Part shown: one piece after another, positions 24,001 through 27,000 of the stretch | How positions within the stretch are numbered: position 1 is the stretch's first letter | Layout of the letters: each line of letters starts with the position of its first letter | DNA from: Escherichia coli | GTDB taxonomy: Bacteria; Pseudomonadota; Gammaproteobacteria; Enterobacterales; Enterobacteriaceae | NCBI RefSeq assembly: GCF_041886205.1 | Contig: NZ_CP169029.1 | DNA: 64,000 bases | Strand: one strand, 5' to 3' | Program-made: the position numbers

Positions 24001-27000
24001 TTTCACATCATTGACAATCGCCACCAGTTCCAGGCAAACTTCCCGCTTTGTCGATTTCCTTCTGAAAAGACGTACGCGTTAAATCCTGCCAACGCACCGT
24101 AACCCTGAAACCAGAGAGATGAGACGGGGATACTCCTCGCCTTGCGCTGCATTCTGGAGTAATGCATGACTGCTGTAAGCCAAACCGAAACACGATCTTC
24201 TGCCAATTTTTCGCTCTTCCGCATCGCTTTTGCGGTTTTTCTCACCTACATGACCGTAGGGCTGCCGTTGCCGGTTATCCCGCTGTTTGTTCATCATGAT
24301 CTGGGCTATGGCAATACCATGGTCGGGATTGCCGTCGGGATTCAGTTTCTGGCTACGGTGCTGACGCGTGGCTATGCCGGGCGACTGGCCGATCAATATG
24401 GTGCAAAACGTTCGGCGCTTCAGGGGATGTTAGCTTGTGGTCTGGCTGGCGGCGCGTTGCTGCTGGCGGCGATTTTGCCTGTCTCCGCACCGTTCAAATT
24501 TGCCCTGTTGGTCATCGGGCGTTTGATTCTTGGGTTTGGTGAAAGCCAGTTACTGACAGGCGCTCTGACCTGGGGATTAGGCATCGTAGGACCAAAACAC
24601 TCTGGCAAAGTAATGTCATGGAACGGAATGGCGATTTACGGTGCCCTCGCTGTTGGTGCGCCGCTTGGCCTGTTGATTCATAGCCATTACGGTTTTGCCG
24701 CACTGGCGATCACCACAATGGCATTACCCTTACTGGCGTGGGCCTGTAACGGCACAGTGCGCAAAGTACCGGCCCTGGCGGGAGAACGTCCATCGCTGTG
24801 GAGCGTTGTCGGGCTTATCTGGAAACCAGGGTTAGGTCTGGCACTACAAGGCGTTGGTTTTGCGGTTATCGGGACTTTCGTTTCGCTCTACTTTGCCAGC
24901 AAAGGATGGGCGATGGCGGGCTTTACTCTTACCGCGTTTGGCGGCGCATTTGTCGTGATGCGCGTCATGTTTGGCTGGATGCCGGACCGTTTTGGCGGCG
25001 TGAAAGTGGCGATTGTCTCTCTGCTTGTAGAAACGGTGGGCTTGTTGCTGCTCTGGCAAGCCCCAGGTGCATGGGTCGCATTAGCGGGCGCGGCGTTAAC
25101 CGGAGCCGGATGTTCGCTTATCTTTCCTGCGCTGGGCGTGGAGGTGGTTAAACGCGTCCCCTCACAAGTTCGCGGCACCGCACTGGGCGGTTACGCCGCG
25201 TTTCAGGATATCGCCCTCGGCGTCTCCGGGCCGCTGGCGGGAATGCTGGCGACCACGTTTGGTTACTCTTCGGTATTTCTTGCCGGGGCGATCTCTGCGG
25301 TGCTGGGTATTATTGTCACGATACTGTCATTTCGTCGGGGTTAACGAACCAGCCAGACCAGCATCAGGATAATCGCGACTAACAGTATCCACAGCGCGGG
25401 ACGCGTTGCCATATTTTGCAACGTGTCCATCATCGGTGGAAAAGGATTAAGCAGCGGTTGCATATCACGCGGATCAATCCCTTTAACCCGCCGTTGATAA
25501 AGCTGATTAAGAATATCCTCGGCCTGGGCTGAAGAAAGCGATGATTGCGCAGAAAGGCCATATTTTTGCTGGATATATGCCGATAACGCCGCCAGTTCAC
25601 TGGCATCTAAAGGTTGTTTTAGCGCCATCTGTAGTGATTCCAGCGTCGGCGTATTTTGCTGGCTTAGCGTCTGACGCGCCTGTAGCCAGGTCACCAGATG
25701 GTTAAACAGTTTCGCTGGAATTAACTCGCCATCTTTCACCCCGGAAAGTTCCAGCATCGATTGCCAGATCTGTTTGCTGGGTTCCCCCGTTGCCGCCGCA
25801 AGTTTGGTCACCAGCTGTTTAAGCGCATTGTGCTCCGCCGGTAATAAAGGACGGTCGGTCGCCTCGCGCTGCTGCGGTTGCGGAATAACCATCTTCCCTT
25901 CCTGCAACAGGGTGAGAATTGTTTTTAATTGCTCCGGTGAGAGCTGATTCAGCGGCGTCTGACCAAAGTTATGACGGATATAATCCGTGACCGCCTGACG
26001 ATTATTCCCCAGACGTAAATACTCCCCTAATTGCGCTAAAAGCTGGCGGGCAGAATGGCTTTTTTGCGCGGCCAGCAGACGTTGCGCCAGATTATGCTCA
26101 GCGGCAGGGAAGTGACGTGAAAGTAGCGGCGAATCTCCCGACAGACCAATATCGTGCCTGATACCCGCCCACAGCTCTGCTCTTTGTTGTTGCGTCAGTG
26201 AGGTCACTTTCGTCATTAAGCTTTCCAGCGAAGTACGTTGCTGACTGGATAAAGGCTGATTGCCCGCGCCAGACGGCAGGTTATCTCCCTGACCTGGTGG
26301 TTGCCCAGGAGGAGGGCCGGAAATAGGTTGTATCATTACGTATCCTTATACCTGAAATCTTCGCAAGTATGCCTGGCCGCGAGATTATGGCACACTTGTC
26401 CGGTTAACTCTCGTCTCATACAGGTAACACAAACGTGAAAATCCTTGTTGATGAAAATATGCCTTATGCCCGCGACTTATTTAGCCGTTTGGGTGAGGTG
26501 ACCGCGGTTCCCGGGCGTCCAATCCCCGTCGCTCAACTGGCAGACGCGGATGCGCTGATGGTGCGTTCGGTCACGAAAGTGAATGAATCTTTGCTGGCAG
26601 GAAAACCCATTAAATTTGTTGGCACTGCCACTGCGGGGACCGACCATGTCGATGAAGCATGGTTGAAGCAGGCGGGAATTGGTTTTTCCGCTGCACCTGG
26701 CTGTAATGCGATTGCGGTGGTGGAATATGTTTTCTCCTCCCTGCTGATGCTTGCCGAACGCGATGGATTTTCACTGTACGACCGTACGGTGGGGATCGTG
26801 GGCGTTGGTAACGTTGGACGTCGATTGCAGGCGCGACTGGAAGCGTTAGGGATTAAAACCTTACTTTGCGATCCGCCTCGCGCCGACCGTGGGGATGAGG
26901 GTGATTTCCGCTCGCTGGATGAGTTAGTCCAGCGCGCGGATATTCTGACTTTCCATACGCCACTCTTTAAAGATGGTCCGTACAAAACGCTACATCTGGC

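Follow-up and report, generated by a model that had tools for sequence, protein, structure and literature searches.

The shared stop codons of the convergent genes yfcJ and flk in Escherichia coli: an ordinary overlap followed across the Enterobacteriaceae

This study concerns the junction of two convergent genes in a 64,000-nucleotide stretch of the Escherichia coli contig NZ_CP169029.1 (assembly GCF_041886205.1), which we call the window and whose positions are used throughout. The two coding sequences and the tetranucleotide that joins them are the following.

24166..25344, plus strand: yfcJ coding sequence, an MFS transporter of 392 aa, with its stop TAA at 25342-25344 (from the ORF list, with which RefSeq agrees)
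25341..26336, minus strand: flk coding sequence, the flagella biosynthesis regulator Flk of 331 aa, with a C-terminal hydrophobic anchor (from the ORF list)
25341..25344, no strand assigned: TTAA tetranucleotide, common to both coding sequences and holding both stops (direct reading)

Read directly, positions 25339-25346 are GGT TAA CG. The stop of flk is also TAA and is the complement of 25341-25343 (TTA on the plus strand). The coding sequences overlap by 4 nt (25341-25344) and the stop codons by 2 nt, and the TTAA sits inside the palindrome GTTAAC at 25340-25345. Base 25341 doubles as the third base of GGT, the last codon of YfcJ, and base 25344 does the same for CGT, the last codon of Flk. 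The sharing is limited to the stop codons and places a small constraint on the sense codons, namely that the last codon of each gene ends in a pyrimidine. The gene names, strands, coordinates and stop overlap given in an earlier note on this DNA were borne out by the sequence at 25339-25346, by the open reading frames and by RefSeq. That note had named a mis-assigned stop as one way in which its reading could fail; when this was checked both frames proved to be genuine, each with a full-length NCBIfam match.

YfcJ matches NCBIfam NF009048 over its whole length (1-392/392, 704 bits) and also matches Pfam MFS_1. Flk matches the NCBIfam equivalog NF007987 at residues 2-330, which covers profile positions 1-338 of 339 with 507 bits; its family call comes from NCBIfam, and our local copy of Pfam gave sub-threshold matches alone. 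We found 667 Flk homologues, and those that were aligned all terminate at the same position. The C-termini of both proteins align across genera without a change in length. The boundaries given by RefSeq/PGAP are identical in four E. coli records (VE-T9, a K-12-type strain, MG1655 and E24377A), and in MG1655 they place flk at 2437950..2438945 on the plus strand and yfcJ at 2438942..2440120 on the minus strand. Strain VE-T9 matches the window at 100% identity across 24000-26500, an interval of which at least 80% is present in 5422 of the 5426 complete genomes of E. coli.

Strain E24377A keeps the 4-nt TTAA overlap with a flk region of about 74% DNA identity to the window. Its yfcJ-flk allele (our locus L003, NC_009801.1 2608396-2610572) is divergent and lies between a normal fabB and a normal pdxB, with protein identities to the window of about 65% for Flk and about 85% for YfcJ, and it has the appearance of imported DNA. 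A mosaic of this divergent type with the E. coli type seems to be present in two Flk proteins from metagenomes (P0059 and P0063).

The class to which this junction belongs has been described before. Read on the opposite strand, TAA and TAG become TTA and CTA, and thus two convergent stops can interlock as CTAA, TTAA, CTAG or TTAG, that is, as YTAR. Lillo & Krakauer (2007, PMC2174442) used the interlock of stops to explain the jump at length 4 among convergent overlaps, and they put the number of convergent overlaps in E. coli at 58. The terminator problem was raised explicitly in the same paper, with rho-independent terminators predicted for only 23 of the 116 E. coli genes in convergent overlaps. 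The yfcJ/flk pair has all the features of the YTAR class for which we tested: the genes lie on opposite strands, 3' to 3', their TAA or TAG stops fall within one tetramer and their frames are genuine. The geometry is exactly that of the 4-nt class of Lillo & Krakauer (PMC2174442), with no difference in kind, and the pair can be seen as one named instance of that class, traced here in 80 species. It is the sole overlap among the 7 convergent junctions of the window, the other six having gaps of 10, 71, 120, 47, 32 and 58 nt. The overlap is ordinary and is no statistical oddity.

The comparative set consists of 80 species-representative loci of the Enterobacteriaceae, picked from the alignment of Flk homologues, with both stops located in each. 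The loci fall into five arrangements.

Exact 4-nt overlap: 30/80 loci
Spacer of less than 150 nt: 22/80 loci
Spacer of 150-1000 nt: 2/80 loci
Additional gene between the two (1.6-2.3 kb): 12/80 loci
yfcJ absent from the flank: 14/80 loci

All four allowed tetramers are present in the 30 overlap loci (TTAA 15, CTAA 7, TTAG 6, CTAG 2), which come from all Escherichia species, most Citrobacter, Salmonella arizonae and diarizonae, Yokenella, Intestinirhabdus and some unnamed Enterobacteriaceae. The terminal residues of the proteins also vary among these loci, being R/S/V/A/L/F/T in Flk and G/C/S/R/A/P in YfcJ. That all four tetramers occur and that the terminal residues vary is what a neutral network under stop constraint would be expected to show. 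The overlap has been dissolved in 50 of the 80 loci, by a spacer, by an inserted gene or by the lack of yfcJ in the flank, and the adjacency of flk and yfcJ is therefore dispensable.

Spacers of 18-93 nt are found in Enterobacter, Lelliottia, Leclercia, Cedecea and Buttiauxella, where inverted REP-like palindromes or hairpin terminators stand between otherwise unaltered C-termini. Those of Enterobacter, Lelliottia and Leclercia are 40-93 nt long and contain inverted palindromes, for example GCCGGGTGGCGGCTACGCCTTACCCGGCCTAC ... GTAGGCC..., which we take to be REP-like by eye, from their resemblance to the REP consensus. Compared against Rfam, the Enterobacter spacers matched naRNA4 alone, at E = 0.37. 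The positions of these spacers, numbered within each locus, are as follows.

About 4500-4600 in each of L033, L034, L036, L040-L042, L045, L061, L063, L072 and L075: REP-like spacer

Many of the loci in which yfcJ does not abut flk have a strong and often bidirectional terminator hairpin within a few bases of flk, such as AAAAAATCCCCTCCGCTGGAGGGGATTTT. Bidirectional intrinsic terminators between convergent genes occupy the same genomic position as the junction studied here, and they are present at the 3' end of flk in Kosakonia, Phytobacter and Silvania loci, whereas the E. coli junction lacks both intergenic DNA and a hairpin with an A-tract on one side and a U-tract on the other.

Two further observations concern individual loci. 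In the two Trabulsiella loci (L031 and L035, positions 4503-4640) yfcJ is missing, and about 130 nt separate the flk stop of L031 from the end of fabB. The bases that follow the flk stop in L031 (TAACCCTTACGGAAAC) resemble the reverse complement of the 3' end of yfcJ, which suggests, from this likeness, that they may be a deletion remnant. Additionally, a locus titled 'Chryseobacterium sp. 18061' (L060, CACSKA010000009.1) has a typical Enterobacteriaceae pdxB-flk-yfcJ arrangement, with a layout nearly identical to that of 'Citrobacter sp. 18056' (L062), and this assembly is probably mislabelled or contaminated.

What such a junction implies for the transcripts is partly a matter of logic. A complete mRNA must include its own stop, and hence it must include sequence complementary to the other gene. 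The statement that each transcript must run antisense into its partner is therefore sound, and an MG1655 RNA-seq survey lists the transcripts of this pair as overlapping (PMC12288877). The earlier note had also stated that the overlap leaves no intergenic space for a terminator. There is indeed no such space, but it does not follow that a terminator is absent, as the coding sequence of the partner can host one (PMC2174442), and for that reason the extent of the transcripts is not fixed by the overlap. Two structures past the yfcJ stop have to be considered here.

25399..25428, plus strand: 11-bp inverted repeat GGACGCGTTGC-N8-GCAACGTGTCC in the flk coding sequence, 55-84 nt past the yfcJ stop
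25392..25418, plus strand: weak terminator-like site from the consensus scan, with a 7-bp stem CAGCGCG/CGCGTTG followed by CCATATTTTG

The segment 25388-25440 folds at -25.8 kcal/mol, and a 151-nt region with the 25399-25428 hairpin has a fold z of -2.5 against shuffles. The hairpin falls short of a canonical terminator in that its stem lacks a following U-tract, although it could act in transcription pausing or in the protection of a 3' end. The stem of the weak site is worth -8.4 kcal/mol; its T-run begins 5 nt beyond the stem, and the stronger 11-bp hairpin is its competitor. A relaxed scan of the yfcJ-sense strand for hairpins with U-tracts returned weak sites only, at -8 to -11 kcal/mol. 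On the flk-sense strand neither the consensus scan nor the relaxed scan found a terminator-like hairpin with a U-tract across the whole of yfcJ. Scanned against Rfam at E<=1, the interval 22000-28000 gave two sub-threshold matches at chance level, none of them at the junction.

These structures could be read as an embedded intrinsic terminator or a 3'-protecting hairpin (25392-25428) that ends yfcJ transcripts within flk, about 65-85 nt past the stop, so that the overlap would be short and defined there. We consider this unlikely. The consensus-scan site (25392-25408, then CCATATTTTG) and the energy and z value of the 11-bp hairpin argue for it, as do the terminators predicted for a fifth or so of the E. 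coli genes in convergent overlaps, those 23 of 116 (PMC2174442). Set against this are the missing U-tract of the strong hairpin, the displaced T-run of the weak one and the competition between the two. Published 3' ends do not help the case either, as the Term-seq data of Adams et al. 2021 (PMC7815308) contain no 3' end named for flk or yfcJ and none at MG1655 2,438,700-2,439,299 (24387xx-24392xx), and the SMRT-Cappable-seq supplements mention neither gene. The comparison with other loci weighs in the same direction. In 17 overlap-type loci the 25399-25428 hairpin had 54.5% of cells paired, which is no better than shuffled or slid controls, and its conservation does not extend past E. coli and E. 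albertii. The RNAalifold consensus energy downstream of the yfcJ stop is about 0 kcal/mol, which means essentially no conserved RNA structure. What would mark an embedded intrinsic terminator, a hairpin directly before a U-tract and conservation or covariation in the orthologous loci, was absent on both counts.

The excludon concept originates from Listeria, and classic excludons have long overlapping UTRs and a demonstrated opposite expression of functionally opposed genes. The pair studied here is like an excludon in that its genes are opposite-strand neighbours with overlapping transcripts, and it is itself listed as one: in a 2025 survey flk-yfcJ is among 165 convergent excludons identified by ExcludonFinder in at least 50% of 58 MG1655 transcriptomes, and excludon pairs in general show higher synteny (PMC12288877). 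It differs from the classic cases in that its overlap arises from the coding sequences and that it has no known reciprocal regulation or functional opposition. If it were a functional excludon, the overlap would be selected and convergent transcription would make the expression of flk and yfcJ mutually exclusive, either through interference of polymerases or through cleavage of the duplex by RNase III. The place of the pair in the MG1655 excludome, the synteny of the class and the retention of the geometry in 30 of 80 loci over several genera (Escherichia, Citrobacter, Salmonella, Yokenella and Intestinirhabdus) are consistent with this. However, the listing says nothing on function, since overlapping coding sequences make an overlap of transcripts unavoidable, and in the other 50 loci the pair is separated or yfcJ is absent. 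The junction has no conserved RNA structure, and yfcJ RNA is low (163 normalised counts, PMC10294691). No functional link is known to join the two proteins, one of which acts in a flagellar checkpoint while the other is an MFS transporter to which a part in bo3 oxidase activity or in arabinose efflux has been ascribed, and we found no published account of reciprocal expression or RNase III processing for flk-yfcJ. A functional excludon at this junction thus seems to us quite unlikely. Antisense interference between the two genes is a possibility and no consequence of the overlap, and we found no evidence for it.

A binding site for PhoB also lies close to the junction.

25314..25331, plus strand: near-consensus Pho box TGTCACGATACTGTCATT in the last yfcJ codons, 10 nt before the joint stops (exact match in the window)

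A PhoB ChIP-seq peak with a ChIP score of 8 has been reported at MG1655 2438961 (Fitzgerald et al. 2023, PMC10294691, Table 1). In the same work yfcJ RNA was unchanged, at 163 in the wild type and 187 in delta-phoB, and intragenic PhoB sites were regarded as inert and not conserved. In agreement with this, conservation of the Pho box stops at Escherichia, and it is not kept in the Citrobacter or Salmonella loci. A role of the Pho box as a promoter was also considered and rejected, since the sequence after it offers no usable -10 element and regulation is not seen in the published data (PMC10294691). That the overlap might be a selected device coupling Flk inversely to YfcJ through convergent transcription or an RNA duplex, with PhoB at the Pho box modulating it under phosphate starvation, is in our view highly improbable. 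We give next to no credence to head-on polymerase collision, or to a PhoB roadblock at 25314-25331 under phosphate starvation, as what sets the transcript ends: head-on and trailing collisions do drive termination at convergent E. coli pairs (bioRxiv 10.1101/2022.10.23.513370) and the PhoB site 10 nt from the stops is ChIP-verified (PMC10294691), but the collision mechanism depends on dense traffic of polymerases and on a stem-loop lying between the boundaries of the genes (bioRxiv 10.1101/2022.10.23.513370), whereas flk/yfcJ has no intergenic element and low expression, and against the roadblock stand the unaltered yfcJ RNA in delta-phoB, the judgement that such intragenic sites are inert (PMC10294691) and the lack of the box in Citrobacter and Salmonella.

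The base composition of the transcript extensions bears on how these RNAs might be ended.

24950..25340, minus strand: 3' extension of the flk transcript, antisense to the end of yfcJ, C-over-G rich, without a hairpin and U-tract; a candidate Rho-loading zone

In 78-nt windows the C/G ratio of the flk extension lies at 1.1-1.5 within the initial 100 nt and reaches a maximum of 1.93 near offset 300. In the yfcJ extension the enrichment is confined to the initial 90 nt, where the ratio is about 1.3. The background of such windows has a median of 1.0 and a 95th percentile of 1.72. Rho suppresses antisense transcription in E. coli, and the flk and yfcJ extensions may resemble its substrates, being untranslated, antisense and mildly C-over-G rich. 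On the base composition they are plausible Rho substrates, with a C/G enrichment that is modest. They differ from Rho-dependent systems in that no bicyclomycin-sensitive region is reported at the flk/yfcJ junction. Adams et al. 2021 (PMC7815308) list no Rho-termination region there, possibly as both genes are poorly expressed.

For this pair that data set has a single entry: at MG1655 2440043, which is 77 nt inside the yfcJ ORF, it gives a Rho-termination region with a Rho score of 5.8 and a p of 4e-12 (PMC7815308). Adjoining it, in the first transmembrane-coding part of yfcJ, is a small hairpin CCGCA-N7-TGCGG followed by TTTTTCTC (24219-24245, plus strand). Hairpin and Rho region together suggest premature termination or attenuation early in yfcJ.

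The explanation we favor, with a probability of roughly three in four, is that the junction is an ordinary, frozen YTAR stop-on-stop overlap of functionally unrelated and independently transcribed genes, with termination that is presumably Rho-dependent or diffuse. The frozen state would be a near-neutral one, in which only two changes are free, T<->C in the first base of the tetramer and A<->G in the fourth. Each of these transitions exchanges TAA and TAG as the stop of one gene and alters the wobble position of the final codon of its partner, and together they link all four tetramers. Without its stop, YfcJ is computed to gain a readthrough tail of 50 codons, and Flk one of 25. With no intergenic DNA, each mRNA necessarily runs into the antisense strand of its partner, and after the ribosome leaves at the stop the mildly C-rich untranslated antisense RNA would most likely be ended by Rho or by heterogeneous 3' decay. 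The short complementary 3' regions would then be a by-product and no selected regulatory device.

Three points could be held against this explanation. The conservation of the overlap over several genera could reflect selection for the overlap of transcripts, and the 25399-25428 hairpin of E. coli and E. albertii might be a lineage-specific determinant of 3' ends. The case for Rho is also a weak one, given the modest C/G enrichment and the lack of a Rho region or Term-seq 3' end at the junction in the lists of Adams et al. (PMC7815308). Nothing indicates a selected antisense regulatory function at flk/yfcJ.

The overlap in itself matters little. It is already in the K-12 reference annotation, its class was described in 2007 and the transcript overlap of the pair was catalogued in 2025. 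The modest value added here is comparative: the geometry has been held through all four tetramers in about a third of the species sampled, and other lineages resolve the junction by REP-like palindromes, by hairpin terminators or by a whole gene. This provides a natural series on how transcripts are ended where there is no intergenic DNA.

Elsewhere in the window, a transposase of the ISApl1 family (IS30-like; 12047-13021, minus strand) interrupts a gene of the yfc fimbrial operon, within 7561-15057. Several of the neighbouring fimbrial genes, including the usher gene, are annotated as frameshifted pseudogenes in VE-T9. Closer to the junction, just downstream of fabB, there is a sub-threshold Rfam match to naRNA4, a REP-derived family (23911-23962, minus strand; 29 bits, E = 0.03); the spacer between fabB and yfcJ probably holds a REP element here.
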